Source of the DNA: an uncultured bacterium
GTDB lineage: Bacteria > Pseudomonadota > Gammaproteobacteria > Steroidobacterales > XN24
Length of the DNA: 24,000 bases
Reading direction: 5' to 3'
NCBI GenBank assembly: GCA_965233095.1
Contig: CBDDRR010000275.1
Span: forward strand, 59,479 to 83,478
The first letter of the stretch is position 1. Each line of letters starts with the position of its first letter. The position numbers were made by a program, and so were the translations under genes. The notes under the pieces are model-generated. The model was not told the origin of the DNA. It saw only the letters and a list, made by a program, of their open reading frames with translations, and did not search any database. Shown here one piece after another: positions 2,013-23,349 of this stretch.

Positions 2013-2019
2013 GTGCGCA

Positions 2020-3940: not shown

Positions 3941-4719
3941 GGCGCGGCTCCGGCCGCAGCGGCGGCAGCGACAGGCAACCTCAGCAGATCCGGCGCGGCC
4001 GTTTCCCGCGCCATGCGCAGGCCATGCCGCACCTGAGCGACGTGCTGATGCGGGAGTGCCTCCCAGGCGCCGCTGCTGCTGTTCCAGGTGCCCGCCTGCT
4101 TGCCATCGGCCGACAGGTAGTACAGCGCCGTGCGCCCCAGACGCAGCACATCGACGGTGCGGCCCTGGACCTCGGCGCGCTCGGTGCCGATCGAACGTCC
4201 GTACTCCGATTCGATCTGCCAGGCTTCCAGAAGGCGCTTGAACTTCTCGGCGTTGTTCGCCTCAGGATCGGACATGAGCTTCTTCAGCGTGTCCAGCCGC
4301 TCGCGGCGCTCGGTCGCCAGAAACGGCAGGTCCAGCGCGATGAATTTCTCCAGCCCCTCGACCATGCGCAGCATCAGCGGCAGCAGCTCGCGCTCGGTGC
4401 GCTCCATCTCGGTGATCTGACGCTCGATCGAGCTGCGTTCGCCCTCCTGCGCGGACACCAGTTCGCCGAGCTGCTTGGCATAGACCGTGAGTTGCTGCGC
4501 CTGCCAGCTCGCGGCGCGATAGCGCTCGAGCATGGACTTGGTCTGATCGTCGAGGCTATCGACCCTCTGCTGGGACGTTCTCGCGGCGCGGTTGCCATCG
4601 ACCACCGCGTCCAGCGCCTTGCCGGCAGCGTCCTGAGCCGGCGCGCAGGGCACGGCAACCGCCAGCGACAGGCCGAGCATCCGCGCGGCGACAGCCTTCC
4701 ACTTTGGGAATACGATCAT
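3937..4719 (-). CDS. DUF3450-family periplasmic protein (TtpB-like first gene of the TonB2 cluster)
   Basis: Signal peptide MIVFPKWKAVAARMLGLSLAVAVPCAPA, then coiled-coil text SIERQITEMERTERELLPLMLRMVEGLEKFIALDLPFLATERRERLDTLKKLMSDPEANNAEKFKRLLEAWQIESEYGRSIG, as recalled for DUF3450. I chose ATG at 4719, which has GGAGGAG about 12 nt upstream. The ORF track extends to 4761. Confidence 0.75.
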   Translation of the reverse strand: MIVFPKWKAVAARMLGLSLAVAVPCAPAQDAAGKALDAVVDGNRAARTSQQRVDSLDDQTKSMLERYRAASWQAQQLTVYAKQLGELVSAQEGERSSIERQITEMERTERELLPLMLRMVEGLEKFIALDLPFLATERRERLDTLKKLMSDPEANNAEKFKRLLEAWQIESEYGRSIGTERAEVQGRTVDVLRLGRTALYYLSADGKQAGTWNSSSGAWEALPHQHVAQVRHGLRMARETAAPDLLRLPVAAAAAAGAAP

Positions 4720-4825
4720 GTTCCAGGGGACTCCTCCCCGCCGACAAACGCGCGGTGGCAAGCCACCGCACTGATCGAAACTTCAATGCACGGATCCCTC
4801 TCAGGCCGGCTCGAAGTCTCTTTTA

Positions 4826-4918: not shown

Positions 4919-7417
4919 TCAGAACTGGTACTTGACATAAAAGCCGAGGTTGTCGCGATCCTCGTAAAGGTTGTCCTTACCGCCGCCGAAGAAACTGTTG
5001 TAGGCGATAGTGAACGAGTAGGACTTCCCGTAGCGCGTTTCCAGCAGGAAGTTCAGGGTCTTGCGGCCTTCCACGAAATTGCCGGCCGGTCCCGGCGAGT
5101 TGCCACCGATGTCCTGTGACCAGATGAACAACGGCTGGATGCTGATTGAAGGGAACACCGACTCGTAGGCGATGCGCCCAACGATGCGATAGCCCCAGGA
5201 AAATGCATCGGCGAATGCACTACGCGGTGCCTGGTAAGGGTTGAAGCGCAGTCCGTCCGGACCCACCGAGCACGAGGGATTGGTCGAACAGGCTAGGCGC
5301 GATCCATCCGCACCACTGCCATCGGCGCCGGCGCTGGCGTGCGTGGTCGCCGTCAGCGGGCCTTCGATCTGCAGCTTGTCGAAATCCGGCATGTTGAGCA
5401 CATGGGTTGCCGCCAGTTCGTAGAGCAGGATCACCTGGTCCGCAGCAATCCAGTTCTCGTTCGGGCCGAGCACCTGCGTCGCTCCGAAGTTGTACTGTGC
5501 CACCTTTCCGGGAATCCAGCCGCGGATGTAGCTGTTCGGCGGATTCTCGCCTACCACACCGCCGCGGTAGGGCACGATGAAGTTGGGAAAGGAACGCGCC
5601 GAACCCGGCGCCGCGCCCACGACCAGATTGATTGCATCAGGGTAGGGGTTGTTGCCGCTGGCGTCGGTGAAGTTGTTGCCGTCGTAGACCACGTAGCTCC
5701 CCGCCTCGTTGAACCCGAGTCCCGCAGAGGCGCCCAGGCAACCCAGATTCCGGTCGTGGCAGCGGGTCAGAGTGGGACCGAAGGAGGCAAAGGCCAGATC
5801 GATCAGGGCAACCTGCAGCGGAAGTTTCGGTCGGTAGGACAGCTCGCCCTGCAGGGACAGCTCGCCAGCGGTGGTGGTGAAGCTGAACCCGAACATCTTC
5901 AGGTCTTCGGGGTATTCGAGCTGGATCTGGGCCGTGTCCAGCGGCACGGCGTCACTGATTTGCTGACCAGGCTGCGGCAGCAATAGTCCGCCCACGCCGC
6001 CCAGAATGGCTCCCAGGTCCAATGTCCCGGCGCCCAGATCAGCGAGCGCGCCCGGCCTCTGTGCCGCCAGAGTGACCAGATCGAGAGCCAGTTGCGATGA
6101 CGCCGACGGCGCGGTGACCGGTAGGTTTGGACACCCGGCCAGGAATTCGAGAGTGTTCGTGGCGTCGATGCCCCGGGAACTGCCCTCGCGACGGGCGCAA
6201 CTGGGATCGGTGGAATAGAAACTCACGTACGGCAGCTTCGAATGGTAGTTCATGAAGTAAGCCGCGAACTCGGTGCCGTTATTGAGTTCCTCGGCGTAAT
6301 ACTTCAGGCCGATGCCGTACTGGCCCTGGTCGCGGGCCTCGTTGTCGCCGCGCCGATCCAGGGTCAAGGTGGTTGGCGTGATCAGGGTGAGCGGGTTGTC
6401 CAGCGGCGCACCGACGTGATCGGGGTCGTCCGCCGCGCCACCGAACGCCGCGTTGACCGTACCGCGCAGATTGTCGGTACCGATGTCGACGAAGGACATG
6501 TAGCTGCCAGGCGTCGGAATCTCGACCGGGTCCCATTCGTACTGGTAGTAGATCTCGACGCCGACGTCGTTCACCAGTTCTGTGCTGAAGCGCGCCATGC
6601 CCACCGGGACGAAGAGCTCCTCCAGCAGACCGAAACCGAGCCGGTAAAGGCTGTTCGCGTTCACCGGCTGCGCCTGGTTGACGCTGTTGACGACCGCGAC
6701 CGTGCTCTGGCCCCAATTCACTGTCTGCCGGCCGAGCCGAAAGGTCAGTTCGCGTTCGCCGACAAAAGGCAGACTCCCGTAGAAATTGGCATCGAGCAGG
6801 TCGTATCTGAGCCCGATTTCTTGCGCCTCGTCTTCCGCCCGGTCACTGCGAACCGGAGCCCCAGGACCGTACACCCGCGGCAGGTACCGGTTGGACGTCG
6901 GGCTGCCGACAATACCCACGCTGCCAACGTTCTCGGCGGTGATCTGGTTGGGGTAGAAATTGCGGAAGTCGGAGTAGTTCGCCTGGTCGAAAATGCCAAG
7001 TCCTCGAACAAAGATGCCGTAGTCTCCGAAGCTGACGGTAAGGTCTTGCGAGAGCTTGAGCGGCGCCTGGATGATGTCGCCCTTGTTGTAGTTGAGATTG
7101 CCGTCGTCGAAGTTGATGGAGGCCATACCCGGCGCAGACGCCAGCCGTTGGGCGGGAAAGTTCTGCAGGCGGTGCAGGCCCTGGCAGGACTGGTAGGGAC
7201 CGGAACAAACCCCGGGATCGAGGTTGGACTTGCCGACCAGATCATTTGATCGACCCTCGATTCTCCACGCAGCGCCAAGCGTGAGGGTATTGTTCAACAC
7301 TGACGAAAAATCAAAGCCTCCTGCCGAGAAGTCGTACTCGACGGCGTTCGCGGCCGGCCCTGCGAGCAGCAACGCAGGAATGATTGACCAGCGACATGCA
7401 GACCTACTCCAAAACAT
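4919..7417 (-). CDS. DUF1302-like outer-membrane protein (predicted large beta-barrel), unusually long
   Basis: Signal peptide MFWSRSACRWSIIPALLLAGPAANA. The N-terminal text VEYDFSAGGFDFSSVLNNTLTLGAAWRIEGRSNDLVG and the C-terminal aromatic ending DRDNLGFYVKYQF match my memory of the DUF1302 family. Alternating beta-strand-like composition runs throughout. ATG 7417 has GGAGAG 5 nt upstream; the ORF-track start at 7435 is a TTG. Confidence 0.65.
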   Translation of the reverse strand: MFWSRSACRWSIIPALLLAGPAANAVEYDFSAGGFDFSSVLNNTLTLGAAWRIEGRSNDLVGKSNLDPGVCSGPYQSCQGLHRLQNFPAQRLASAPGMASINFDDGNLNYNKGDIIQAPLKLSQDLTVSFGDYGIFVRGLGIFDQANYSDFRNFYPNQITAENVGSVGIVGSPTSNRYLPRVYGPGAPVRSDRAEDEAQEIGLRYDLLDANFYGSLPFVGERELTFRLGRQTVNWGQSTVAVVNSVNQAQPVNANSLYRLGFGLLEELFVPVGMARFSTELVNDVGVEIYYQYEWDPVEIPTPGSYMSFVDIGTDNLRGTVNAAFGGAADDPDHVGAPLDNPLTLITPTTLTLDRRGDNEARDQGQYGIGLKYYAEELNNGTEFAAYFMNYHSKLPYVSFYSTDPSCARREGSSRGIDATNTLEFLAGCPNLPVTAPSASSQLALDLVTLAAQRPGALADLGAGTLDLGAILGGVGGLLLPQPGQQISDAVPLDTAQIQLEYPEDLKMFGFSFTTTAGELSLQGELSYRPKLPLQVALIDLAFASFGPTLTRCHDRNLGCLGASAGLGFNEAGSYVVYDGNNFTDASGNNPYPDAINLVVGAAPGSARSFPNFIVPYRGGVVGENPPNSYIRGWIPGKVAQYNFGATQVLGPNENWIAADQVILLYELAATHVLNMPDFDKLQIEGPLTATTHASAGADGSGADGSRLACSTNPSCSVGPDGLRFNPYQAPRSAFADAFSWGYRIVGRIAYESVFPSISIQPLFIWSQDIGGNSPGPAGNFVEGRKTLNFLLETRYGKSYSFTIAYNSFFGGGKDNLYEDRDNLGFYVKYQF

Positions 7418-7640
7418 CCTTACTCTCCATACCAAATGTTTGTTAGAACAACATCATACCGGGAATAGATTGGATTGATGCCAGTTCGGACCGGCGGGCG
7501 AAGCGCCCCGACCAGCGGGTGCCTGCCTCGTGGACGCGCTCGGGCGGTGGACGCCGTGCGCAAGCGATCAGCGTCGACCTGCGAAGCGTCGGACGCGCAG
7601 GCGCGCGACAGGATTCTCCTGCCGCCGTTCCCTTCCTACT

Positions 7641-8147
7641 TCACTTTCCAGGACTGATCGCGCCCTCGACGATCACCTTGACCGTCTGCATGCTCGAATC
7701 GATGGTCCGGTGCATGCCATCCGACCAATACACCCGCAGGCTGCGCTCGCCCGCGCTGACCGGCAGGTCGAACACGAACACGTAACGGTTTCCACCGAGC
7801 CGGATGAGCTGGTTCTCACTCGGCATCAGGGAAATACCGTCCGTTTCGATATGCAGATGAGTACCCACCACCGGCGCGCTCATGGTCAGCCGTGCCATTT
7901 CGCCGGGCGTTTCGAACACCACGGCGAGCTGCGTCCCGACCTTGGCGCCGGTCTCGGGAAACAGGATGCGCAGCGGTGGAACCTCGGTGGCACCCTTGCC
8001 CGCCGCGCCATCGGCCGGGTGTTGTCCGTGCCCTTGGTGATGGTGATGCTGATGGTGATCGTGCGCCGCGTCGCCGCCTGCCCGCGTGCCAAGCGATACG
8101 CTGCTGGCGAGCAGCGCGAGAATAAAAAGAGCGGGGGATCGTTGCAT
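7641..8147 (-). CDS. Secreted DUF4399-like protein with N-terminal poly-histidine tract (putative periplasmic metal/copper-binding protein)
   Basis: Signal peptide MQRSPALFILALLASSVSLG, then HDHHQHHHHQGHGQH. The following domain LRILFPETGAKVGTQLAVVFE...VVGTHLHIETDG...LGGNRYVFVFDLPVSAGERSLRVYWSDGMH resembles the DUF4399 G-H-H-H-L-x-x-D pattern. AGGAGA lies 6 nt upstream of the ATG, and the gene starts 18 nt after the copD-fusion stop. Confidence 0.6.
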   Translation of the reverse strand: MQRSPALFILALLASSVSLGTRAGGDAAHDHHQHHHHQGHGQHPADGAAGKGATEVPPLRILFPETGAKVGTQLAVVFETPGEMARLTMSAPVVGTHLHIETDGISLMPSENQLIRLGGNRYVFVFDLPVSAGERSLRVYWSDGMHRTIDSSMQTVKVIVEGAISPGK

Positions 8148-8165
8148 GGTTGTCTCCTGAGTGTT

Positions 8166-10127
8166 TCAGTGAATGTGATCGTCCGGGGGCGGACGCAAGC
8201 GCGGTTCGGCATTGAGCCGATCCAGTTCCGGGTACAGCCTGACGGGGTCGGTCCATCCCTCCGGGTCGTCCTGTGCAATCCAGCGCGCACGCACGTAGCC
8301 GAAACGATCGATGAGGAATTCCGCATCCGTCCAATCCATGCCCAGCCGGTCCGGCAGGCCGCGGTCGCCGACCGTGCGCGCGAGCAACTCGTAGGCGGAC
8401 CAGAGCTCGGCAGCAGCGGTGCTCAACACGGGATAAGGCAAGTCGGCAGGCAGGCGAACATCGCCCAGCGGTACCGCGAGAATCTGCGTACGGCGCGACT
8501 GGAACTCAGGCATCGCAGCGGCGAGCGTTCGCGCGCGAGCTTCGGCATGTGGTCCGCCGAGAAAGGTCAGCAAGACATTGTGTGTATCGCGATATCCCTT
8601 GAGTTCCCCCGGTCCAGGCACGCCCTCGATGTAAAAATTGATCGCCCCCAGCCAAGCCAGTCCGGGAACCACGCGGGCCTGCAGCACCCGGCTTTCGAAA
8701 CCTTGCGAGAAGGCGCGCATGAAGTTGATCAGGTCCCAGCGGTCGTCCTCGGACAGCACGGCACCCAGGGCGGGCATTCCACTGTCGGGAATACCGTGCG
8801 TGAGCCACCAGTGCATGTCCCCCGCCGTGTGCAGCGCCGTGTGCGGCTCGCTCAGATTGGCCGGCGGCTTCGGCAGCTTGGCGGCCAGCGCGCCGTCTCC
8901 AAGTCCTCCCGCGCCGTGGCAGGCCGTGCAGTGCTCGGCGAACAGCGCGCGCCCGCCGGCCACGGACAGCGTCAGATACGGCACCTGGGAGCGCCGATAG
9001 GTATTCGGATAAGCCGGGACGGCGAACGCCCAGGCCAACACGCTGGTCGCGGCTACCGCCAACAGCATTGAGGGAATGCGCAGCGTTTTACGTCGCGAGC
9101 CGGTTGCCGCGGCTCCCGCGAGGATCAAGGCTGCGAAGGCTGCCAGAAACCACACCCGCAGCGACGAATCCGGCCAGGTTGCGTCTAATGACCAGCGGAA
9201 CGGCAGCCACCACTTCGGCGCGGGCTCGTGCAGTGCTGGGGTGGTCTGCGCCAGCCAGGCTGCACAGATCAGGACGCCGGAAGCCGCGGCCAGTTCAGGG
9301 CAGAAATGACGCAAGGCCGAGGCGGCAAGGCGACGCTGACCAGTCGCCTCGCCGGCCGATCTCAGCATGGGAAGAAACCGTGTTCGCAACCGGTTGGCGA
9401 ACAGCAGCGCAAGTGCCAGCAAGCCGAGCTTTCCGAGAATCAGCGCGCCGTAGCGCGTCCCCAGCAGGTCCCCCTGCGTGTCGATGTAGAGATCCGCCAG
9501 CCAGACGCCCGTGACGACGATGACGATCATCAACACCATCGCCAACCGAGAGAATCGCTCCAGGGCGGCCGCAAGAACCGGCGTGGGCAGCGCGGACGGA
9601 TCGGCGCGAGCAAAACGTCGCACCGCCACGAACCAGGACGGCAGGGCGCCGACCCAGACCGAGATGGCGAGAACATGGATGACATTGGGCAGCATCACCT
9701 GCCAAGCCGATTCCGCGCCGGCTGCGTGTCCACCCCAGGGTCCGAGCGCGAGATACGTCGCCGCCATCGAGGCGCAAGCCCATCGCGCCCGCCCCCATGT
9801 CGTCGCCACGAGCGCCGACAACAGCAGCAGGACGGCGACGCTGCCGCGTATCCGCCACACTCGCCCGACATGGGTGCCGTTGATCAGGCTTTCCCAATCG
9901 GTCGAACCGGAGCCGAGGGGGGCGAGCGAGAGCGCCTGGGCCCACATCAGGCCGGCATGGCCCAGAACCACCAGACCGACGGCGATCAGCAGGGGCAGCG
10001 CCGCGCGCAGGGCTGCACGCTGCGGATCCATCCGGGCGCACCATAGGCTGAAGCAGGTCGAACCGATGATCCACGCTGCGCCGGCCGTCGCGATGAGTCG
10101 AGAGGCCGCGGACAGGAATTCGATCAC
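8166..10127 (-). CDS. copD: Fusion protein: CopD-family polytopic membrane domain + mono-haem cytochrome c domain + Cys-less thioredoxin/TlpA/SCO-like domain
   Basis: 653 aa. Residues 1 to about 375 carry many TM helices with CopD-like text. CTACH (nt 8916-8930) plus a downstream GIPDSGMPA gives a c-type haem site with a Met ligand. The C-terminus NVLLTFLGGPHAEARARTL...AEFLIDRFGYVRARW looks like a thioredoxin-fold protein in which the CxxC position reads GPHA. GTG start at 10127, 7 nt after the copC stop. Confidence 0.75.
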   Translation of the reverse strand: MIEFLSAASRLIATAGAAWIIGSTCFSLWCARMDPQRAALRAALPLLIAVGLVVLGHAGLMWAQALSLAPLGSGSTDWESLINGTHVGRVWRIRGSVAVLLLLSALVATTWGRARWACASMAATYLALGPWGGHAAGAESAWQVMLPNVIHVLAISVWVGALPSWFVAVRRFARADPSALPTPVLAAALERFSRLAMVLMIVIVVTGVWLADLYIDTQGDLLGTRYGALILGKLGLLALALLFANRLRTRFLPMLRSAGEATGQRRLAASALRHFCPELAAASGVLICAAWLAQTTPALHEPAPKWWLPFRWSLDATWPDSSLRVWFLAAFAALILAGAAATGSRRKTLRIPSMLLAVAATSVLAWAFAVPAYPNTYRRSQVPYLTLSVAGGRALFAEHCTACHGAGGLGDGALAAKLPKPPANLSEPHTALHTAGDMHWWLTHGIPDSGMPALGAVLSEDDRWDLINFMRAFSQGFESRVLQARVVPGLAWLGAINFYIEGVPGPGELKGYRDTHNVLLTFLGGPHAEARARTLAAAMPEFQSRRTQILAVPLGDVRLPADLPYPVLSTAAAELWSAYELLARTVGDRGLPDRLGMDWTDAEFLIDRFGYVRARWIAQDDPEGWTDPVRLYPELDRLNAEPRLRPPPDDHIH

Positions 10128-10134
10128 CCCGGCC

Positions 10135-10515
10135 TCAGGGCAGGCTTAATTTGAACCCGTAGCCGTAATCCACGACATGGCCATCGACCGACAGAACACG
10201 ATACTTGATCGTGTAGCTTCCGCCGGGCAGCGAATCGACCGACGCAGTCAGACAGGCGGGCTTTTGCGGGTCGGCCTTCAGCTCACCGAGCGGAATCTCG
10301 GTGCCATCGGCGTTGTACAAGCTGACCTTGGAAAACTTCGCTTCGACGTTTTCGTTGAAACACAATCTAATTTCTTTCGGAGCCGCGGCCAGCACTGCAC
10401 GCCGGCCGGGTTCCGAACTGACCAGCCCTGCATGCGCGAACACAGCAGATCCGTAAGCGCCGAGCGAGCATGCGATGAGTAGCCAAAAAGCCATGCGGGG
10501 TGACTGCGTCCTCAT
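10135..10515 (-). CDS. copC: Periplasmic copper-binding protein CopC (Cu(II)-site-only type: N-terminal His plus D-x-H; no Met-rich Cu(I) site)
   Basis: Signal peptide ending VFA, then HAGLVSSEP. The SVDGHVV motif matches the D-x-H ligands of CopC. The mature protein contains no Met. The start makes an ATGA overlap with the upstream gene; an alternative start is Met8 at 10494. Confidence 0.85.
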   Translation of the reverse strand: MRTQSPRMAFWLLIACSLGAYGSAVFAHAGLVSSEPGRRAVLAAAPKEIRLCFNENVEAKFSKVSLYNADGTEIPLGELKADPQKPACLTASVDSLPGGSYTIKYRVLSVDGHVVDYGYGFKLSLP

Positions 10516-11123
10516 GTTGCTTTAGCTTTAGCTTTAGCTTTAGCTGTCTTGCGACCGGTGAGTCGATAAGCCAGTCCTGCGAGCGCGAAAACGATCATGA
10601 AGGCGGGGGCGTAGCGCCACAGGCTGTGCACGCCGACCTTGAACGGGAACACCGAGTGCAACAACGTGCCGGTGGCTGGATCCTTGGCGGTGATCATCCC
10701 GATGTACCAGCCCGGCGCATCGAAGCCCTGATCGAAGGTCAGCGTGCCTCGCGGATACACCTGCGGCGGCACGTGGATCAGGGTGGCTGCTGCGATGTCC
10801 GCCGGCGTTCCGAGGTCTTCGTAGCGTCCCCGCGACTTTAGATCCTTAGTATCTCTGAGCACGCGGAACTCGACTTCATACTGACGCAGCGCGGCGCTGA
10901 CGTAGTCAATGACAATGATGGCGCGCCCGAGTTCCGGGATGTCTTCGCAGAACTCCTGCGTCGCGCGCTTTTCCGGCTGGTAGCCGGTGAAATGCGCGGT
11001 CATCGCACCGATCTTCATGATGCAATTGTCGTCTTCCATGGACACGCCGCCGTGCGCGCCTGCAGGCGCGGTTGCGAGCACGGCGGACCCGAACACCAGG
11101 ACGCGGGCGAGACGACGCATCAT
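10512..11123 (-). CDS. PmoD/AmoD-like membrane-anchored periplasmic protein (putative copper protein)
   Basis: 203 aa from the ATG at 11123, which overlaps the pmoB TGA by 1 nt. Signal peptide MMRRLARVLVFGSAVLATAPAGA, mature N-terminus HGG, cluster DDNCIMKIGAMTAHF, and a second Cys in QEFCEDIPE. There is one C-terminal TM helix (YAPAFMIVFALAGLAYRL) and a KAKAKAKA tail. Architecture and position after pmoCAB match PmoD. Sequence-level homology was not verified. Confidence 0.55.
   Translation of the reverse strand: MMRRLARVLVFGSAVLATAPAGAHGGVSMEDDNCIMKIGAMTAHFTGYQPEKRATQEFCEDIPELGRAIIVIDYVSAALRQYEVEFRVLRDTKDLKSRGRYEDLGTPADIAAATLIHVPPQVYPRGTLTFDQGFDAPGWYIGMITAKDPATGTLLHSVFPFKVGVHSLWRYAPAFMIVFALAGLAYRLTGRKTAKAKAKAKAT
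10519..10545 (-). repeat. Hexanucleotide tandem repeat (GCTTTA)x4 plus a partial unit, encoding the (Lys-Ala)n C-terminal tail of the PmoD-like protein
   Basis: The plus strand reads gcttta gcttta gcttta gcttta gct. The minus-strand sense is GCT AAA GCT AAA GCT AAA GCT AAA GCA ACA TGA, giving AKAKAKAKAT*. Confidence 0.9.
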
Positions 11124-12361
11124 CAGCTCTTGCTCATACCGAAGTCGGGAATCATGGGGCCGCCAAATTCCACCAAGTGCCGCTTGCCGCCTTCCTCGAA
11201 GAAGAACAGCACGCCGGCCACGACCGCATCCGGCGAGGAAATCATGGTGGTCATGCGCTCGGTTTCCCACATGGCGTCGTCGGCGTAGATCACGACGCGC
11301 TGAGTGGCTCCCGCAGCAACCGGCCCACCTTCCACGCGCAGGGCATCGGAAGCCACCAGGTCGTGCTCGTCCTTGGGTTTGACGTCGAGCACCTTGGCGT
11401 TGATGAAGCGCAGGTTGCCGGCGGCGAATTCGCCGATGGTCACCTGGCGATCACTGTTGTTGATGACGTCGAATTCCATCCTGAAGCTGCGGCCGGGAAT
11501 ACGGTACCGGGCTTCGATGAGCTTGATGGAGATCGGGGTCGGCGGCTGATCGAGCGGGGGAACGTCGATCTTGCCGGTCTGGAGAGGGGTGGTGATGGGC
11601 CATTTTTCCTGGGCGTAGACATAGCCGCCGACGATCAGGCTCAGGGTCAGCACCAGGAAGATGCCGCCGATGCGCCGGTCCATCGGGGTGATCATCTGAT
11701 CGGCCTCGACGCCCAGTTCTGCGGTGCGCTTGAAGCGGGGCACGACGATGGGGCACTTGGTCAGCCAGTAAATGAACCAGGACAGGCCCACCGCAAACCA
11801 CAGCGCGGACCAGAACATGACGTTGCCCAGGCCGTAGGTTTCCAGATCGATGGTTTCGCCAAGCAGGGTCTTGGCGGTGTTCTGGAAGGCCGCTTCGTCG
11901 CCCGCCACTTCGACCCACATGCCGGGGCCGATCATGGGGCCGGCGCCTTCGACATTGATGACGGTGTGGACGTGATAACGACCCACCTTGCGCGCCTTGA
12001 GCGTGATCTCGAAATCGTAGGTCTCGCCCTTGCGAAACGAAGTGGAGCGGATCATCGGCACGCCGTTGACGCGCGAGTCCAGACGCACAAACGCAGGGCC
12101 GGGCACGCCGATGTTGAGGAAGGCCGTTTCCTCGATCGAGTTCACATGGTGCGGCCAGTACTTCGACGGCATGAACTTGCCGCTGATCTTGACGATGTCG
12201 TTGATGGCCAGCTTGGAAGCGGAGGCCTGCACGTCGATCCAGTGAACCGTGCGCATGCGCAACTGCGGCATCTGCGCGCGTTCGCCGTGCGCTAGCAACG
12301 TCGGGGTGTAGCCCGCGCACAGTGCGAGCAGCGGAAGCAGAAAAGCACGTAGGAGTTTCAT
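11123..12361 (-). CDS. pmoB: Copper membrane monooxygenase subunit B (PmoB/AmoB family)
   Basis: Signal peptide MKLLRAFLLPLLALCAGYTPTLLA, then HGERAQMPQLRMRTVHW. Also RYHVHTVINVEGAGPMIGPG, two central TM helices, and C-terminal cupredoxin text IEARYRIPGRSFRMEFDVINN...GVLFFFEEGG. This is closely parallel to Methylococcus PmoB as I recall it. ATG 12361 preferred over the ORF-track start at 12406. Confidence 0.93.
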   Translation of the reverse strand: MKLLRAFLLPLLALCAGYTPTLLAHGERAQMPQLRMRTVHWIDVQASASKLAINDIVKISGKFMPSKYWPHHVNSIEETAFLNIGVPGPAFVRLDSRVNGVPMIRSTSFRKGETYDFEITLKARKVGRYHVHTVINVEGAGPMIGPGMWVEVAGDEAAFQNTAKTLLGETIDLETYGLGNVMFWSALWFAVGLSWFIYWLTKCPIVVPRFKRTAELGVEADQMITPMDRRIGGIFLVLTLSLIVGGYVYAQEKWPITTPLQTGKIDVPPLDQPPTPISIKLIEARYRIPGRSFRMEFDVINNSDRQVTIGEFAAGNLRFINAKVLDVKPKDEHDLVASDALRVEGGPVAAGATQRVVIYADDAMWETERMTTMISSPDAVVAGVLFFFEEGGKRHLVEFGGPMIPDFGMSKS

Positions 12362-12371
12362 GGTCGCGCCC

Positions 12372-13145
12372 TCAGACGATCTTCCGGATCCAGAGTGCCT
12401 TGGCACCCAGGTAGCCGATCCACAGCCAGAACCAGTAGTTCATGATGTTCAGGAATCCGGCGAACACTGCCGTCAGCGGCGTCACCGCTGACCCGAAGGT
12501 TCTGAGCGTTGACTCCTCGATGATGCGGACGTATTCGGGAATCGCCGTGCGGATGTACTCGTAGCCCATGAGATCGGCCACAGTAAGCATGGTGCCGTTG
12601 AGTTCCAACGGCACCTGGAACGGCGCCAGCATCGACCAGTTGAGCGGGTAGATCAGCAGACCGAAGGCAAACCCGCCGAACAGCCCGGTCCAGAAGAAGC
12701 TGCGAGTGAGCAGCAGCATGCAGTCCAGAATCAGACCCAGCCCGATGTAGGTCGAGGGCCACACGAAGTTCATCGGGAAATCCGCGAACAGATAAAAATT
12801 GAGATAGCGGCTGATCCAGGCCGCGAGGGTCAGGCACAGGATCGTGAGCGTCCCGCCCAGCGGCAAACGAAGCTTGTCCCACAGCAGAAACCCGAACACT
12901 CCCGGCAGTACTGAGAGCGCCAGCGGCGTCACCAGCGGCCACCAGCGGCGGTCGCGCCAGTCCACCCAGTAATCCCAGTCGCCGACGAGCAGGGCGAAGT
13001 GAAAACTGAAGATGCCCATGAACAGCAGCACGATCAGGGGGATGACCAGCAGGTCCGCCTGGACGTAGGCCTTGTGCTGCTCTTTTGACGAGCTGAGCCC
13101 GTAAGCACCCGAGGCAGAACTGTCGAGATCATCTACGGCTTTCAT
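12372..13145 (-). CDS. pmoA: Copper membrane monooxygenase subunit A (PmoA/AmoA family)
   Basis: The hallmark GDWDYWVDWRDRRWWPLVTPL, plus multi-TM text through TAIPEYVRIIEESTLRTFG. GGAGG lies 5 nt upstream of ATG 13145. Confidence 0.93.
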   Translation of the reverse strand: MKAVDDLDSSASGAYGLSSSKEQHKAYVQADLLVIPLIVLLFMGIFSFHFALLVGDWDYWVDWRDRRWWPLVTPLALSVLPGVFGFLLWDKLRLPLGGTLTILCLTLAAWISRYLNFYLFADFPMNFVWPSTYIGLGLILDCMLLLTRSFFWTGLFGGFAFGLLIYPLNWSMLAPFQVPLELNGTMLTVADLMGYEYIRTAIPEYVRIIEESTLRTFGSAVTPLTAVFAGFLNIMNYWFWLWIGYLGAKALWIRKIV

Positions 13146-13286
13146 GGGGGCCTCCGCCTCAAAGCGTCAAGCAGAAAGCCCGCGAGCGGGACAGCCTGAT
13201 TTCCGCGTTTCTAATTATTCACGCAATGTTCTGACCGCCCGCGAGCGGTCAAGTCGTAAAGCGTCGCGTTAGTCTCGTCGCTCTCC

Positions 13287-13314
13287 GGCGAGGGCGCCGA
13301 GGGGCGCCCTCGCC
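13287..13314 (-). other. Perfect 12-bp GC-rich stem with 4-nt loop in the pmoC-pmoA intergenic region (RNA stem-loop; processing, stability or attenuation element)
   Basis: ggcgagggcgcc gagg ggcgccctcgcc; the arms are exact reverse complements. It starts 23 nt downstream of the pmoC stop. No U-run follows on the transcribed strand. Confidence 0.5.
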
Positions 13315-13337
13315 TGACGCAAGACCAAGGATCGTTA

Positions 13338-14132
13338 TCAGGCTGCTGCTGTGACTGCCATCGCCTTCGCCGATTCCACCCTCGGCGCGGGCTCACCGAT
13401 CACCTTGGTCAGTTCGACGACCCGGGTGAGGATCTGCACCACCAGTCCGCCGGCCGCAAACGTGGCCCAGCCGAGCAGCACGAAGCCCCAGTGAATCGGC
13501 GCGGCGAACAGTTCCTCGGCGTAGAAGAACGTGTGACCCCATTCGTTCAGCCCCAGGTTGGGCATGATCATGATCGGCCCTGCAACCACCAGCGCAAACG
13601 GCAGGGACAGCTTGTTCGCGAACTGTGGCAGCCGTGTACGGGCGTAGGCGAACGCCGCCACACCGCTCATGATGAACATGGGAATGCCGAAGTAGAACAG
13701 CGTGATGTGGGTGGGCGTGAAATCGGTATCGCGCACCGTCACCTGATGCCAGGCCGCATCCGCCTCGGTGAACGGCGACGCCGTCAGATAGGCCACGATC
13801 GCGAAGATCATGATGTACCCGAGCAGCACGAAGTAGCGTCGCAGCTCCTCGACCGGCGCGAGCTTGTCCAACTGGCGATCACGCGTGTGCCAGATCCATC
13901 CGACGATTCCCGTGCCCATCGCGACCAGCACCGGCAACTGGATATACAGCAGCATCATCCAAGTGCTCTGGAATTCCGGCGAAAAGTAGTCGAGCCCAAC
14001 AGTGAAGGCGGTAGCGTTTTGATACAGCCGGTAGCCGGTGTAAAGCATTCCAACTCCGACCAGAATCAGGAAAAGCTTGGCCCAGGGAGCCGTGGGGGAC
14101 TGGTATGTCGTGCTTTGGCTGACGGAACTCAT
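13338..14132 (-). CDS. pmoC: Copper membrane monooxygenase subunit C (PmoC/AmoC family)
   Basis: DAAWHQVTVRDTDFTPTH and NEWGHTFFYAEELFAAPIHWGF are signature PmoC motifs. AGGAGG (plus strand cctcct 14141-14146) lies 8 nt upstream of ATG 14132. The ORF-track start at 14180 has no such site. Confidence 0.93.
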   Translation of the reverse strand: MSSVSQSTTYQSPTAPWAKLFLILVGVGMLYTGYRLYQNATAFTVGLDYFSPEFQSTWMMLLYIQLPVLVAMGTGIVGWIWHTRDRQLDKLAPVEELRRYFVLLGYIMIFAIVAYLTASPFTEADAAWHQVTVRDTDFTPTHITLFYFGIPMFIMSGVAAFAYARTRLPQFANKLSLPFALVVAGPIMIMPNLGLNEWGHTFFYAEELFAAPIHWGFVLLGWATFAAGGLVVQILTRVVELTKVIGEPAPRVESAKAMAVTAAA

Positions 14133-14205
14133 GATGTAAACCTCCTGACCTGGATGGCGACCCGATTCTGCGCGCTTCACCAGCTAGGGCGCTGGCGACG
14201 ATCAG

Positions 14206-14235
14206 ACCATAATTGAGCTTACATGGAAAAGTCAA
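14206..14235 (-). promoter_or_regulatory. Candidate sigma70-type promoter for pmoC (TTGACT-N18-TATGGT on the minus strand)
   Basis: The minus-strand reading is ctaTTGACTtttccatgtaagctcaatTATGGTctg. It lies in the AT-richer divergent intergenic region, about 70 nt upstream of the pmoC ATG. The 18-nt spacer and imperfect -10 make this tentative. Confidence 0.35.
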
Positions 14236-14253
14236 TAGCAGATAGCTCTGCTA
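14236..14253. promoter_or_regulatory. Perfect 6-bp inverted repeat TAGCAG-N6-CTGCTA abutting the candidate pmoC -35 (possible operator)
   Basis: The plus strand reads tagcag atagct ctgcta at 14236-14253, directly adjacent to the TTGACT element. Confidence 0.3.
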
Positions 14254-14480
14254 CGCACATTGCTATCGTCCTGGATTTCGATCGGACCCGCCTATTTAGT
14301 AGTGCGCAGTACGTACATTCACTATATTATTTGTCGTCCTGATCGCGCCGATGTGCAGAACGTCGTTACCGCACTATCTAACAAACGCTTGACTGATTTA
14401 TTGTGGGCGAATGAACCCTATGAGCCTTATATGAACCTTAGTGGTCCGCAATCGCTTCCTCCTCACATGGAGACTCGTAC

Positions 14481-15938
14481 GTGAACGCTCCCTCGAAGAT
14501 TCCGGTGCCCAGCACGCCGGTCCAGGACCCGCTGGCAGAACGGGTGTTAGCCACTTTCGAGGCGCAGCGGCCCACCGCTCTGCGCTGGCGCACATCCACC
14601 GCCGTGGAGCGGATCGAACGTATCCGCAGACTGCGCGACGCGGTTCTGGCGGCAGCACCCGCCATTCGCGCCGCGGCGGCGGCCGACTTCCGCAAGCCGG
14701 AAGTCGAAGTGGACCTGACGGAAATCTTCACCGTCGTATCCGAAGCGAACATGGCCATGCGCAGACTCAAGCGCTGGATGAAGCCGACTCGCGTCGGGTT
14801 CTCGCCGCTGATGGCCGGCACTCAGGGACGCATCGAATACCAGCCGCGCGGCCGCTGCCTGATCGTTTCGCCGTGGAATTACCCGGTGAATCTCAGCTTC
14901 TGCCCGCTGGTGCTGGCGCTCGCCGCCGGCAACACCGCCATCGTAAAACCTTCAGAGATGACGCCACATCTGTCGGCGCAGATGCAGACAATCATCGACG
15001 CGACGTTTCCTGCAGAAGAAGTCGCGCTGTTCCAGGGCGACGCAGAACTCGCCAAGACCCTGCTCGACCTTCCCTTCGACCACATTTTTTTCACCGGGGC
15101 ACCCGCCCTGGGCAAGGTGGTGATGGCTGCCGCTTCGCACCATCTCACCAGCGTCACCCTGGAGTTGGGCGGCAAGAGCCCGACCATCATCGACGCCAGC
15201 GCCGACCTCAAGGCGGCCGCGCACAACGTGTGCTGGTCCAAGTTCATGAACAACGGGCAGACCTGCATCGCGCCCGATCACCTGTTTGTACACGCCTCGG
15301 TCGCCGACGAGTTCCTGGACCTGCTGCGCCAGCGGCTGGCGGAAGTCTTCGGCAAGGATGACGAGGCGCGTTTCCTGTCGCCCGATCTCGCGCGCATCGT
15401 CAACGCCCGCCACACCTCCCGCGTGCGGCGACTGCTGGACGATGCGCGTCAGCGTGGCGCAACCGTCGCCGTCGGTGGTGACGTGCGGGAAGAGCACTGC
15501 TACGTCTCACCAACGATCCTGGAACGAGTGCCGGACGACGCCGCCATCCTGCGGGAAGAGATCTTCGGGCCGCTGCTGCCGGTGATCCGGTTTGGCGAAC
15601 TCGACGAGGTCATCGACAGTATCAACGGCGGCGAAAAGCCGCTCGCGCTGTACATCTGGGGCAAGGACCGTGCACGCATCCGCCGCGTGCTGGACCGCAC
15701 CTCCTCGGGTGGCGCCTGCGTCAACAACACCGTCGTGCAGGCCCTGCACCCACTGCTGCCGTTCGGTGGCGTCAACCATTCAGGCCTTGGCAGCACGCAT
15801 GGCGAGTTCGGCTTCCGCACGTTCTCACACGCTCGCGCCGTCGCCGATACCCGCATCGGGCTGGTTCGGATGTTCTATCCACCCTACACCGAACGCGTGA
15901 AGCGCCTCATCGCGATGACCTTGCGCTGGTTCGCATAG
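14481..15938 (+). CDS. NAD(P)+-dependent aldehyde dehydrogenase (class-3 / fatty or coniferyl aldehyde dehydrogenase-like)
   Basis: 485 aa. ELGGKSP (general-base Glu) and NNGQTCIAPDH (catalytic Cys). GTG start with GGAGA 7 nt upstream. Confidence 0.85.
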   Translation: MNAPSKIPVPSTPVQDPLAERVLATFEAQRPTALRWRTSTAVERIERIRRLRDAVLAAAPAIRAAAAADFRKPEVEVDLTEIFTVVSEANMAMRRLKRWMKPTRVGFSPLMAGTQGRIEYQPRGRCLIVSPWNYPVNLSFCPLVLALAAGNTAIVKPSEMTPHLSAQMQTIIDATFPAEEVALFQGDAELAKTLLDLPFDHIFFTGAPALGKVVMAAASHHLTSVTLELGGKSPTIIDASADLKAAAHNVCWSKFMNNGQTCIAPDHLFVHASVADEFLDLLRQRLAEVFGKDDEARFLSPDLARIVNARHTSRVRRLLDDARQRGATVAVGGDVREEHCYVSPTILERVPDDAAILREEIFGPLLPVIRFGELDEVIDSINGGEKPLALYIWGKDRARIRRVLDRTSSGGACVNNTVVQALHPLLPFGGVNHSGLGSTHGEFGFRTFSHARAVADTRIGLVRMFYPPYTERVKRLIAMTLRWFA

Positions 15939-15976
15939 CTAGAACGGTGCTGAGATCCTTCCCAGCTCCCGTGTTT

Positions 15977-16004
15977 GGCCTCGTGATCGAGGCCCCCTTT
16001 CTTC
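15977..16004 (+). terminator. Candidate intrinsic terminator/attenuator after the aldehyde dehydrogenase
   Basis: ggcctcg tgat cgaggcc (7-bp stem, 4-nt loop) followed by ccctttcttc, 39 nt after the stop codon. The T-tract is interrupted, so it is probably leaky. Confidence 0.4.
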
Positions 16005-16044
16005 GCGTCATCCTCATCCATCTCAACCCTCTGGAGAGTCAACA

Positions 16045-17223
16045 ATGAGTCAGACCGTCGTCGTCGCCGGCGTGGGCATGGTGCCCTTCACCAAGCCCGG
16101 TACTTCCGAACCGTATTACGACATGGGCGCCGAAGCGGCCCGGCGCGCGCTGGCCGATGCGGGTGTCGATTACAAACTCGTGCAACAGGCCTATGTCGGC
16201 TACGTGTACGGCGATTCCACCTGCGGCCAGCGCGCGCTGTACCCGGTGGGCATGACCGGCATTCCGGTGATCAATGTCAACAACAACTGTTCGACGGGAT
16301 CGACCGCGCTGTTTCTCGCGCGCCAGGCGGTGCAGAGCGGCGCGGCGGATTGCGTCATCGCGCTTGGCTTCGAGCAGATGAAACCGGGCGCGCTGGGTTC
16401 GTACTTCCATGACCGGCCGAGTCCTTTCCAGCCCTTCGACACCGTTTGCGACGAACTCGTCGGCCAGCCCGATGTACCGCTCGCGATCCGCTACTTCGGC
16501 GGCGCCGGCATGGCGCACATGGAGAAGTACGGCACCAAGGCCGAAACCTTCGCGAAGATCCGCGCCAAGGCCAGCCGTCATGCCATGAACAATCCGGTGG
16601 CGCTGTTCCGCAAGGAAGTGACCGTGGAAGAAGTCATGGCCTCGCCGGTGCTGATCGGACCGATGACGCGCCTGATGGCCTGTCCGCCCACCTGTGGCGC
16701 GGCGGCGGCGATCATCTGCTCCGAGAAATTCGCCAAGACCCACGGCCTGGATTCGCGGGTGAAGATCATCGCGCAGGCCATGACCACGGACACTCCGGAG
16801 ACCTTCGAGGCGCGCAACATGATGCAGCTCGTTGGTTTCGACATGGCGCGTGCCGCGGCAGATCAGGTCTATGCCAGTTCCGGCGTTGATCCCAAGGATG
16901 TCGCCGTGGTCGAGTTGCACGACTGCTTCGCCACCAACGAACTGCTGACCTACGAGGCGCTGCGCCTGGCGCCGGATGGTGGCGGCGAGAAGATGGTCAA
17001 CGACGGGGACAACACCTACGGCGGTCGGGTCGTCACCAATCCCTCCGGCGGCCTGCTGTCCAAGGGTCATCCGCTGGGTGCGACCGGCCTTGCGCAGTGC
17101 ACCGAGCTGGTCCAGCAGTTGCGCGGCACGGCCGAGGCGCGCCAGGTCAAGGGTGCGCGCACGGCGCTGCAGCACAACCTGGGCCTCGGCGGCGCCTGCG
17201 TCGTGACCATGTACCAGGTCTGA
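16045..17223 (+). CDS. SCP2/SCPx-type 3-ketoacyl-CoA thiolase (lipid-transfer-protein-like thiolase)
   Basis: VNNNCSTGSTALF (nucleophile Cys), ELHDCFATNEL (the HDCF acid/base loop of SCP2-type thiolases) and KGHPLGATG. GGAGAG lies 6 nt upstream of the ATG. Confidence 0.85.
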   Translation: MSQTVVVAGVGMVPFTKPGTSEPYYDMGAEAARRALADAGVDYKLVQQAYVGYVYGDSTCGQRALYPVGMTGIPVINVNNNCSTGSTALFLARQAVQSGAADCVIALGFEQMKPGALGSYFHDRPSPFQPFDTVCDELVGQPDVPLAIRYFGGAGMAHMEKYGTKAETFAKIRAKASRHAMNNPVALFRKEVTVEEVMASPVLIGPMTRLMACPPTCGAAAAIICSEKFAKTHGLDSRVKIIAQAMTTDTPETFEARNMMQLVGFDMARAAADQVYASSGVDPKDVAVVELHDCFATNELLTYEALRLAPDGGGEKMVNDGDNTYGGRVVTNPSGGLLSKGHPLGATGLAQCTELVQQLRGTAEARQVKGARTALQHNLGLGGACVVTMYQV

Positions 17224-17237
17224 GGGCGAGCACTTCC

Positions 17238-18112: not shown

Positions 18113-18141
18113 TCACATTCAACCCTCAGGAATCAGACTCC

Positions 18142-18966: not shown

Positions 18967-18968
18967 GC

Positions 18969-20126: not shown

Positions 20127-20151
20127 CGCGCGCTGCAATGCGGATGCCGAA

Positions 20152-20763: not shown

Positions 20764-20773
20764 TCCCTTTCGC

Positions 20774-22077: not shown

Positions 22078-22176
22078 GAGGCCTGCCGCGCGCGGCCCAA
22101 CTCGCCGGGCCGAAGCACACCTCGATCCCGAATTCGCTGCACCTTCATTCACCTTTCTTCATACTGGAGCAACACC

Positions 22177-23331: not shown

Positions 23332-23349
23332 GCAACCGAGTAAACGACC

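Follow-up and report, generated by a model that had tools for sequence, protein, structure and literature searches.

A probable small-hydrocarbon monooxygenase operon with candidate copper-handling genes in a heterotrophic Panacagrimonas

Copper membrane monooxygenases (CuMMOs) are the enzymes of methane and ammonia oxidation; their other relatives are poorly characterised, and the substrates of these are mostly guessed. One group of such relatives, a betaproteobacterial clade named after its xmoCABD genes, was reportedly linked by Rochman and colleagues in 2020 to the assimilation of ethane and propane, by stable-isotope probing, and to propane-induced transcription, and its carriers are said not to have assimilated methane. 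Here we analyse a 24,000-nt stretch of metagenomic DNA (contig CBDDRR010000275.1, positions 59,479 to 83,478; hereafter the window) that carries a seven-gene CuMMO operon, in the order xmoC, xmoA, xmoB, xmoD, copC, copD (fused to a cytochrome c gene) and g7. All coordinates below are those of the whole window, in which the seven genes occupy the minus strand from 14132 to 7641. The window is the reverse complement of, and 100% identical to, contig JBQTHL010000056.1 (L001) from the metagenome-assembled genome (MAG) of Panacagrimonas sp. SAW216, a member of the Nevskiales. We consider it likely that, in this heterotrophic Panacagrimonas, the locus encodes an XmoCAB enzyme of the 'hydrocarbon' lineage of Gamma- and Betaproteobacteria, which would oxidise small hydrocarbons with the help of dedicated copper proteins.

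Several related systems have been described. The CuMMO of another member of the Nevskiales, Solimonas aquatica DSM 25927, was catalogued as being of 'unknown function' (Khadka et al. 2018, PMC6215863), other Nevskiales carriers of pmoCAB are known (PMC13603553), and a 2026 survey of groundwater MAGs counted the CuMMOs of this order. In Methylosinus trichosporium OB3b, the extended pmo operon reads pmoCAB-pmoD-copC-copD-pCuAC (Fisher et al. 2018, PMC6189053), and disruption of its pmoD gene impairs growth in a copper-dependent manner; in betaproteobacterial ammonia oxidisers, the corresponding operon reads amoCAB-amoE-amoD-copC-copD (PMC6189053).

The window has much in common with the xmoCABD loci of Rhodoferax and Polaromonas from oil-sands tailings (L026, L028, L029): the order xmoC-A-B-D is the same, a divergent aldehyde dehydrogenase (ALDH) gene whose product is about 60% identical stands directly upstream, the proteins encoded nearby include CopC, CopD fused to cytochrome c and a homologue of g7, the PmoA clade is a near neighbour of that of the window, and both have several paralogous operons per genome. 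They differ in that the PmoA identity is 65–66%, xmoD is followed by an inserted gene for a pyrroloquinoline quinone-dependent alcohol dehydrogenase (PQQ-ADH), and g7 stands ahead of copCD. In addition, the Rhodoferax and Polaromonas loci have genes for a GMC oxidoreductase, an acyl-CoA synthetase and a MalT/LuxR regulator, all three missing from the window, which has in their place an Ltp-thiolase/MaoC/acyl-CoA dehydrogenase (ACAD) block and a DUF1302/TonB cluster. The S. aquatica locus (L019), also from a heterotroph of the Nevskiales, has the same operon through to g7, with a PmoA that is 72% identical; it belongs, however, to another sub-clade, with a MerR-type regulator gene upstream, a GMC oxidoreductase gene downstream and no adjoining ALDH gene or acyl-CoA block. 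The hmoCAB operon of Mycolicibacterium chubuense NBB4 (L081) likewise encodes, in CAB order and with an AMP-binding ligase gene nearby, the CuMMO of a heterotroph, which is associated with the oxidation of C2–C4 alkanes and alkenes. By contrast with the window, it is plasmid-borne in a Gram-positive host, the PmoA identity is 38%, and hmoB is followed by genes for two hypothetical proteins and an AMP-binding protein, none of which is annotated as PmoD, CopC or CopD (the two operons being compared by annotation only in this region).

Affiliation and copper sites of the XmoCAB subunits

The window belongs to the CuMMO family in that proteins of the AmoC, AMO and Monooxygenase_B families are encoded side by side on the minus strand, the order being C-A-B. 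Alignment of XmoC to PDB 3chx_C shows that the CuC ligands (Asp, His and His, in eaDaawH…tptH) and the CuD ligands (Asn, His and His, in glNewgH…apiH) are both kept, and alignment of XmoB to PDB 6cxh_A identifies the CuB site as the N-terminal His that follows signal cleavage (between LLA and HGE) together with an HxH motif (in RYHVHT). XmoCAB holds every copper ligand known from the structures of particulate methane monooxygenase (pMMO) and ammonia monooxygenase (AMO): CuB in XmoB, and CuC and CuD in XmoC.

To place the enzyme, a PmoA alignment was scanned against one genome per GTDB species, which yielded 80 loci. A neighbour-joining tree was computed from Kimura distances over 250 trimmed columns, with 200 bootstrap replicates and support counted as bipartitions. 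It comprised 72 locus PmoA sequences and four references: PmoA of M. capsulatus Bath, AmoA of PDB entry 9pxf, PxmA encoded on a Methylomagnum plasmid (L082) and HmoA of strain NBB4, the last being used as the outgroup. The method is simple and the references are few, with a single gammaproteobacterial PmoA and no Haliea, alphaproteobacterial PmoA, comammox or verrucomicrobial sequences among them. The 72 gamma- and betaproteobacterial PmoA sequences (that of the window and 71 others) split from the four references with a bootstrap value of 99%. Both the window and the Rhodoferax/Polaromonas xmoCABD loci fall within this 72-member lineage, the window in a Nevskiales clade of 10 members (92%) and the latter in a clade of Rhodoferax, Polaromonas, Hydrogenophaga and Acidovorax (100%). 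Pairwise identities of the window PmoA agree with this picture: beyond the values already given for S. aquatica, Polaromonas and Rhodoferax, they amount to 91% with Solimonas sp. SE-A11 and 85% with Aquabacterium sp. CECT 9606 (L087), as compared to 43% with AmoA 9pxf, 42% with Bath PmoA, 41% with the Methylomagnum PxmA and 38% with HmoA of NBB4. Alphaproteobacterial PmoA obtained still lower scores than Bath PmoA in the comparison with PDB entries.

The enzyme lies outside the pMMO, pXMO, AMO and actinobacterial hydrocarbon monooxygenase (HMO) clades. In the tree, with its one gammaproteobacterial reference, the window PmoA is not nested in the methanotroph PmoA clade; it does not group with actinobacterial HmoA either, from which it is separated at 99%. 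A preliminary description of this DNA had proposed a hydrocarbon-type CuMMO of the Nevskiales kind rather than a pMMO or an AMO, and had named a position inside the canonical pMMO or AMO clades as the outcome that would speak against it: the position found, outside at 99% and with 38–43% identity to the references, bears the proposal out, as do the conserved catabolic neighbours described below.

We also considered that the host might be a facultative methanotroph or a heterotrophic nitrifier in which the enzyme functions as a methane or ammonia monooxygenase, which we regard as very improbable. XmoB scores 512.7 with the NCBIfam model AmoB_BACT, well above the cut-off of 336, the catalytic ligands are all common to pMMO and AMO, and CuMMOs are promiscuous. 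Unlike XmoB, the A and C subunits fall short of their equivalog models (AmoA_BACT, 270.8 for a cut-off of 290; AmoC_BACT, 305.3 for a cut-off of 319), so that two of the three models for bacterial AMO are failed, and PmoA, at 42–43% identity to the reference PmoA and AmoA, stands outside the AmoA and PmoA clades at 99%. Moreover, neither the 24 kb nor any of the conserved neighbourhoods contains one-carbon (C1) or hydroxylamine genes; as already stated in the preliminary description, and in agreement with our domain annotation, the window encodes no methanol dehydrogenase, C1-assimilation enzyme, hao product or cytochrome c554/cM552. The AmoB_BACT cut-off is also passed by the pxmB product encoded on the Methylomagnum plasmid (L082), whose pxmABC genes have been automatically named 'ammonia monooxygenase' as well. 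Because AmoB_BACT is passed, xmo operons receive this automatic label too, and the name is uninformative on function.

The MAG from which L001 derives contains a second, paralogous operon (L018; JBQTHL010000074.1, 9099-15014) with xmoCAB, xmoD, copC and copD/cytochrome c genes and without g7; its PmoA is 80% identical to that of the window in the trimmed tree alignment.

Accessory genes for copper handling

The preliminary description had outlined a seven-gene CuMMO operon at 7641-14132 in which the four downstream genes are joined by overlaps of 1-4 nt or gaps of at most 18 nt. All seven open reading frames are found at these positions on the minus strand, and the coordinates give the following junctions: a 192-nt gap from xmoC to xmoA, a 10-nt gap from xmoA to xmoB, a 1-nt overlap of xmoB and xmoD, a 4-nt overlap of xmoD and copC, a 7-nt gap from copC to copD and an 18-nt gap from copD to g7.

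XmoD has a signal peptide, a cupredoxin-like periplasmic domain and a C-terminal transmembrane helix (a hydrophobic segment read from the sequence). It matches no Pfam or NCBIfam family, and its residues 33–162 align to PDB 6cpd_A, the PmoD protein of Methylocystis sp. Rockwell, over the whole periplasmic domain. In the window XmoD, CIMKIGAMTAHFTGYQPEKRATQEFC contains the His as well as both invariant Cys residues (Cys41 and Cys65 of Met49242_1452). The spacing Cx9H…C occurs in all 47 XmoD proteins surveyed and a Met at +8 in none of them; the window XmoD has a Met at +7. Since the class of PmoD that forms a CuA site is defined by the motif Cx7MxHxnC (PMC6189053), XmoD is predicted to belong, in the classification of Fisher et al., to the copper-binding class without CuA formation. 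As judged from tblastn searches with the window proteins, an XmoD homologue is encoded directly after xmoB in about 65 of the 80 loci, across the whole gamma/beta lineage.

CopC displays an N-terminal His after cleavage (between VFA and HAGL) and a D-G-H motif (VDGH), both read from the sequence, in which no Met-rich Cu(I) site was found. These features fit the C0-1 type, with a CopC fold, an N-terminal His and a predicted D-x-H Cu(II) site, the last assigned from established features of the CopC family. The next protein is a fusion: the CopD membrane domain is followed by a c-type cytochrome with the haem motif CTACH and by a thioredoxin/peroxiredoxin-like C-terminal domain of 174 aa, which gives a weak full-length match to AhpC/TSA (E 0.039) and has no Cys at the place expected of a redox motif. 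A total of 232 homologues have the same architecture of about 650 residues.

The product of the last gene, g7, has a His-rich tail (HDHHQHHHHQGHGQH). A word-indexed search returned 62 homologues, all of them 'hypothetical' and without Pfam domains, and when 1.84 billion cluster representatives were searched exhaustively with the profile, 164 matches were obtained at E <= 1e-3. In the alignment, M89, H97, H99, M108, W141, D143 and H146 are invariant and the His-rich tail is variable. The AlphaFold2 model is an Ig-like beta-sandwich with a predicted local distance difference test (pLDDT) score of >90 for residues 57–160; a Foldseek comparison of this model with the PDB retrieved only generic Ig/FN3 folds, and a sequence search of the PDB retrieved only matches to His-tags. 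The protein was also considered as a PCuAC protein, a possibility that was set aside, as there is no Pfam or NCBIfam match and no PCuAC structure among the 50 listed Foldseek matches in the PDB. The g7 profile matches multi-repeat proteins whose repeats correspond to Pfam DUF4399. No match of g7 to DUF4399 (PF14347) itself was obtained at E values up to 1, and hhalign aligns the two profiles with a probability of 92% and an E value of 5.6e-7, THLHIE of g7 being placed opposite GHFHI. At profile level only, g7 is thus predicted to be distantly related to DUF4399, a domain on which a library search found no functional literature. DUF4399-type domains may in general be periplasmic metal-binding modules, and we propose g7 as a putative periplasmic copper-binding partner of CopC and CopD. 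Every g7 homologue examined for its context adjoins copCD and xmoCAB.

Among the proteins reached in these searches, one metagenome protein of 239 aa (P0341) has a CopC domain joined to a g7-like one, and the g7 profile also reaches proteins with three to six DUF4399 repeats (P0324, P0345 and P0440), P0440 having a weak C-terminal match to cytochrome c (E 0.002–0.008).

The preliminary description held the accessory set to be unusually complete. This does not stand, for the same order is found in the pmo operon of OB3b and is the standard layout within the clade. Both operons have seven genes, the first six in the same order, PmoD and XmoD share the two invariant Cys and the His, and CopC is followed by CopD. 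The differences are that the pMMO and AMO clades do not include the window enzyme, that the XmoD motif is Cx9H and not the Cx7MxH that forms CuA, that CopD is fused to a cytochrome c and a thioredoxin-like domain in the window (the architecture of the OB3b CopD lying outside the comparison), and that the seventh gene encodes PCuAC in OB3b and a DUF4399-like protein in the window. Genes for CopC, CopD–cytochrome c and g7 occur in the order of the window in 16 of the 80 loci (L001–L004, L006–L008, L014, L015, L019–L021, L023–L025 and L052) and, in Polaromonas and two Burkholderiales MAGs, in a rearranged order. Two homologues of the CopD fusion, picked solely because they bore organism names, were looked up for their context: both are encoded in CuMMO operons (one in Bradyrhizobium, the other in Aquabacterium sp. 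CECT 9606), each followed by a g7 homologue. The seven-gene unit spans the Alpha-, Beta- and Gammaproteobacteria, being found in Bradyrhizobium, Aquabacterium and the Nevskiales, where Solimonas sp. SE-A11 is one isolate with all seven genes.

In these data, the four downstream genes look unlike a generic copper-resistance module that stands beside xmoCAB by chance and takes no part in the function of the enzyme. It is true that CopC and CopD, as proteins of copper homeostasis, are widespread and occur in many bacteria that have no CuMMO (PMC6189053). Against such a chance association stand the short overlaps and gaps through to xmoB, the position of xmoD after xmoB in most of the loci, the occurrence of both blindly looked-up CopD fusions in CuMMO operons of other classes, the location of all g7 homologues of examined context beside copCD and xmoCAB, and the copper-dependent growth defect of the OB3b pmoD mutant (PMC6189053). 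We therefore consider this explanation highly unlikely. We propose instead that the four proteins acquire copper, reduce it and, from the periplasm, supply the enzyme with it: Cu(II) would be captured by CopC, redox work during transport would fall to the cytochrome c domain of CopD, and XmoD and g7 would be the enzyme-specific copper partners, g7 taking the place that PCuAC has in the operon of alphaproteobacterial methanotrophs.

Two further observations concern the accessory genes of more distant loci. The Bradyrhizobium locus (L086; GCA_003957705.1, 5737-12548) encodes, in the same seven-gene order, a distant CuMMO (PmoA identity 42%) with a PmoD-like protein, CopC, the CopD–cytochrome c fusion and a g7 homologue, and, to judge from adjoining genes of conjugative transfer (TrbI, CagX), may belong to a mobile element. 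Among other gammaproteobacterial lineages, Porticoccaceae, Macondimonas, Thiotrichaceae and Sinimarinibacterium (L012, L009, L017, L035 and L040-L080) have another accessory set after xmoD: CopC, CopD and g7 are replaced by a multicopper-oxidase-like protein with three domains (about 514–560 aa) and a small cupredoxin-like protein (for example L012, 12690-15333).

Catabolic neighbours and the probable substrate

As the preliminary description had it, the operon is paired divergently with an ALDH gene (see Table 1 for this and all other features); the best NCBIfam match of the protein, MdlD-like, is below the cut-off. The position and orientation of this gene are kept in close Panacagrimonas relatives (75–89% identity), in Rhodoferax, Hydrogenophaga, Polaromonas and Acidovorax (about 60%), and in L083, L085 and L087. 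Beyond it lies a block of acyl-CoA genes (16045..24000) with three ACAD genes, two of them pimC/pimD-like. What had been called a full beta-oxidation set is real as an acyl-CoA block but is non-canonical, with an Ltp/SCP-x thiolase, HadAB-like hydratases, a FabG-like short-chain dehydrogenase/reductase (SDR) and pimC/D-like ACADs, and without a ligase. The block adjoins the CuMMO operon in L002, L003, L006, L007, L052 and L085 as well as in Aquabacterium L087, where the proteins compared are 65–70% identical. Because G+C content and host class differ, the cluster appears to have moved as a unit into Aquabacterium, in what looks like an inter-class transfer of the whole cluster, and such movement argues more strongly for functional coupling than vertical synteny does by itself. 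The connection with aldehyde and acyl-CoA catabolism that had been drawn from the window thus extends beyond local synteny, since it recurs in Aquabacterium and in divergent metagenome contigs. Note that in the L087 contig (1-12505), with its flank of thiolase, hydratase, SDR, hydrolase and ALDH genes, the thiolase and SDR genes may be decaying, since they are short as called (207 and 47 aa). The methyltransferase gene of the window block is shared with only one of the 80 loci, L007.

The steps that are absent from the window recur next to related operons. A quinohaemoprotein PQQ-ADH of 741 residues, with a cytochrome c domain, is encoded right after g7 in L002, L003, L006 and L052, upstream of the operon in the Panacagrimonas perspica group (L010, L013, L016) and directly after xmoD in Betaproteobacteria. 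In L085, which has the layout of the window, it is encoded by the next gene past TPR–DUF1329, and we therefore suspect that the PQQ-ADH gene of the window lies just past coordinate 1, at the left end; by this analogy, an alcohol dehydrogenase is probably present in the genome. GMC oxidoreductase and acyl-CoA synthetase genes are found in betaproteobacterial loci, MerR-type regulator genes upstream of xmoC in many Nevskiales, and an AMP-ligase gene between aldh and xmoC in L083. Because of these recurring neighbours, the route from alkane to alcohol, aldehyde, acid and acyl-CoA can be said to be encoded piecemeal around this operon family.

Taken with the phylogeny, these neighbours lead us to favour the oxidation of a small hydrocarbon. 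XmoCAB would form the usual trimeric membrane complex and, with O2 and membrane-derived electrons, would hydroxylate the substrate to an alcohol, the most likely substrate being a C2–C4(5) n-alkane; this alcohol would be oxidised in the periplasm by the quinohaemoprotein PQQ-ADH whose gene is probably just outside the window, and the aldehyde by the divergent ALDH; the acid would then be activated and degraded by the adjoining acyl-CoA enzymes.

An alkene could be the substrate instead, the enzyme being a Haliea-type monooxygenase of ethylene or propylene whose epoxide products are then detoxified or assimilated. CuMMOs do epoxidise alkenes, and strains of Haliea with pmo-like genes assimilate ethylene, as far as the work of Suzuki et al. 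2012 is cited in PMC6215863. The neighbouring block also encodes a MAPEG protein, of a glutathione-transferase family, and an alpha/beta hydrolase. The hydrolase was examined as a candidate epoxide hydrolase and rejected, since its nucleophile is a Ser (GASMG), as in esterases, and not an Asp. The MAPEG protein is annotated in the window only, outside the set of proteins compared with related loci, no genes of the coenzyme M pathway or for an epoxyalkane transferase are found in the window or the conserved neighbourhoods, and the conserved partners are alcohol and aldehyde dehydrogenases. An alkene monooxygenase accordingly seems to us quite unlikely.

A larger, branched or bulky hydrophobic compound has also to be weighed. 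In that case, the enzyme would start the breakdown of the compound, the DUF1302/DUF1329/TonB system would handle the substrate or a related lipid at the outer membrane, and the acid would be degraded by the Ltp-thiolase/MaoC/heteromeric-ACAD route. The evidence comes first from the genes that follow g7: the order DUF1302–DUF3450–ExbB–ExbB–ExbD–TonB–TPR (the TPR protein being fused to DUF1329 in relatives) is found directly after g7 not only in the window but also in L007 and in L083, L084 and L085, three metagenome contigs found via divergent g7 homologues (cluster at 10554-19900), and the gap between g7 and the cluster is only about 80 nt in L083. The flanks of L018 and L009 have, in place of this cluster, DUF1302–DUF1329–MMPL/RND–YCF48/BNR genes, divergent in L018. 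This recurrent DUF1302/DUF1329 association is the basis for considering a bulky substrate, and the DUF1302/TonB cluster may belong functionally to the monooxygenase. In P. putida, mutants in DUF1302 and DUF1329 genes are less fit on fatty esters (bioRxiv 10.1101/2020.07.04.188060), and in pseudomonads the gene set that flanks L018 and L009 shows co-fitness on these compounds. As for the acyl-CoA block, its thiolase passes the 'lipid-transfer protein' cut-off, the hydratases are HadAB-like and ACADs are pimC/D-like; the block travels with the operon into Aquabacterium, and genes for wax-ester synthase/diacylglycerol acyltransferase (WS/DGAT) or AlkB-like proteins adjoin the operon in some relatives.

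On the other side, the CuMMOs characterised so far (pMMO, HMO and butane monooxygenase) take, to our knowledge, substrates of about C5 or smaller, many members of the clade have neither the DUF1302 cluster nor the acyl-CoA block, the adjacency may merely reflect a hydrocarbon or lipid 'island', and the role of DUF1302/DUF1329 in uptake is conjectural. We hold a bulky substrate to be unlikely on balance. The same doubt applies to its more specific form, namely that the Nevskiales CuMMO is the entry step for a bulkier hydrophobic substrate (branched, cyclic, longer-chain or lipid-derived), acting with a TonB-energised DUF1302/DUF1329 system and a steroid-side-chain-like acyl-CoA pathway and serviced by an unrecognised periplasmic copper module that consists of the CopD–cytochrome c–thioredoxin-like fusion and the DUF4399-like protein.

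Several points weigh against the small-hydrocarbon oxidation that we favour. The adjacent acyl-CoA genes are of a bulky or branched acyl-CoA type, and not of plain short-chain beta-oxidation, and the operon is followed by an outer-membrane DUF1302/TonB/DUF1329 system that gaseous alkanes would not require. The window itself has no gene for an alcohol dehydrogenase, a ligase or a regulator, as the preliminary description had pointed out and the domain annotation confirms. A clade made up of exactly the Nevskiales and Betaproteobacteria obtains a bootstrap value of just 64%, and the Solimonas, Polaromonas and Rhodoferax enzymes were still listed as of 'unknown function' in papers up to 2021 (PMC6215863, PMC8630023). 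Finally, the roles proposed for the CopD–cytochrome c fusion, XmoD and g7 are putative ones, drawn from homology and gene order only.

Other lipid- and alkane-related genes were seen beside related operons. In the P. perspica sub-clade (L010, 6041-8238; L013; L016), genes for an FA_desaturase-family (AlkB-like) protein and an FNR-type FAD/NAD/2Fe-2S reductase stand immediately upstream of xmoC, with the PQQ-ADH gene further upstream, and WS/DGAT genes adjoin the CuMMO operon in L012 (5613-7067), L005 (12708-14099) and L083 (19696-20474).

Table 1. Features of the 24,000-nt window, from the CuMMO operon to its signals and neighbours
Feature	Coordinates	Strand	Support or remark
xmoC (PmoC/AmoC-family subunit, 264 aa)	13338..14132	-	Pfam AmoC E 4e-83
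xmoA (PmoA/AmoA-family subunit, 257 aa)	12372..13145	-	Pfam AMO E 4e-79
xmoB (PmoB/AmoB-family subunit, 412 aa; signal peptide)	11123..12361	-	Pfam Monooxygenase_B E 2e-121
xmoD (g4; PmoD/AmoD homologue, 203 aa)	10512..11123	-	PDB 6cpd_A PmoD E 4.5e-14
copC (126 aa, periplasmic)	10135..10515	-	Pfam CopC E 3.5e-21
CopD–cytochrome c fusion (653 aa)	8166..10127	-	Pfam CopD E 7e-17, Cytochrom_C E 5e-12
g7 (168 aa; signal peptide, His-rich tail)	7641..8147	-	no Pfam/NCBIfam match
Sigma-70-like operon promoter, TTGACT-18 nt-TATGGT	14206..14235	-	hexamers kept in relatives
Structured xmoC–xmoA spacer	13146..13337	-	RNA fold −90.2 kcal/mol, z = −3.8
21-nt conserved block TCTAACAAACGCTTGACTGAT, xmoC/aldh divergent region, facing aldh	14377..14397	+	
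NAD(P)-dependent ALDH (485 aa), divergent	14481..15938	+	Pfam Aldedh E 1.5e-93
Ltp/SCP-x-type thiolase	16045..17223	+	NCBIfam 'lipid-transfer protein' 695 vs cut-off 436
HadA-like hydratase	17097..17696 as called	+	Pfam/NCBIfam
HadB-like MaoC hydratase	17693..18112	+	
FabG-like SDR	18142..18966	+	
ACAD	~18990..20126	+	
Class I methyltransferase	20152..20763	+	
Ser-type alpha/beta hydrolase	20774..21673	+	GASMG nucleophile elbow
MAPEG-family membrane protein	21670..22077	+	
pimC-like ACAD	22177..23331	+	
Further ACAD	from 23350	+	cut by window end
DUF1302	7435 (or ATG 7417)..4919	-	Pfam
DUF3450	4761..3937	-	Pfam
ExbB	3940..2552	-	
Second ExbB	2559..2020	-	
ExbD	2033..1608	-	
TonB	1604..876	-	
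TPR protein	from ~790	-	runs off window; TPR+DUF1329 fusion in relatives

Note that the true start of the HadA-like gene is probably later than called, because the called open reading frame overlaps the thiolase gene by 127 nt.

Transcription signals and significance of the locus

The ATG start of xmoC at 14132 and its Shine-Dalgarno sequence AGGAGG are kept in three to four relatives, including L003, L006 and L052. Upstream, TTGACT/TATGGT is the sole consensus match in 7300..14600, which alone is not above chance, and both hexamers are kept in L003, L006 and L052 amid diverged intergenic sequence. On the other side of the divergent region, the TCTAACAAACGCTTGACTGAT block is identical in L001, L002, L003 and L006, with one mismatch in L052 and three in L085; it probably serves the promoter on the aldh side, as its −35 region and/or as an operator. 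The first 10 nt of this block, TCTAACAAAC, have two matches where 0.21 are expected, and the second copy (7438-7447, minus strand), upstream of the DUF1302 gene, raised the possibility of a regulator site shared by aldh and DUF1302. We rejected it: this copy is not kept in L007, L083 and L085 and, being absent from relatives, is probably due to chance.

The long spacer between xmoC and xmoA is strongly structured, none of 200 shuffled sequences folding as well. It begins, right after the xmoC stop codon, with a perfect G+C hairpin of 12 bp (about 13314..13287) that is not followed by a T-run. The spacer may have a role in mRNA processing or stability, and perhaps sets the stability or stoichiometry of the xmoC transcript relative to that of xmoAB. 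No intrinsic terminator was found after g7, where the spacer to DUF1302 folds no better than its shuffles (z = −0.9), and no Rfam family matches the window.

Since the xmo operons of the Nevskiales and Betaproteobacteria had been catalogued before, the locus contributes little in the way of new concepts. Two points are less obvious: the seven-gene unit, which is pan-proteobacterial and includes two uncharacterised copper proteins, and the recurrent association with DUF1302/DUF1329. For surveys of nitrogen-cycle genes, the automatic 'ammonia monooxygenase' labels will be misleading, as they will take in this non-nitrifier lineage. Since cultured carriers exist, namely Solimonas sp. SE-A11, Panacagrimonas perspica DSM 26377, S. 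aquatica DSM 25927, Sinimarinibacterium sp. CAU 1509 and Aquabacterium sp. CECT 9606, the substrate range is directly measurable. For the family as a whole, the CopD–cytochrome c fusion and the DUF4399-like g7 protein are candidates for the long-sought copper-loading machinery of CuMMOs.

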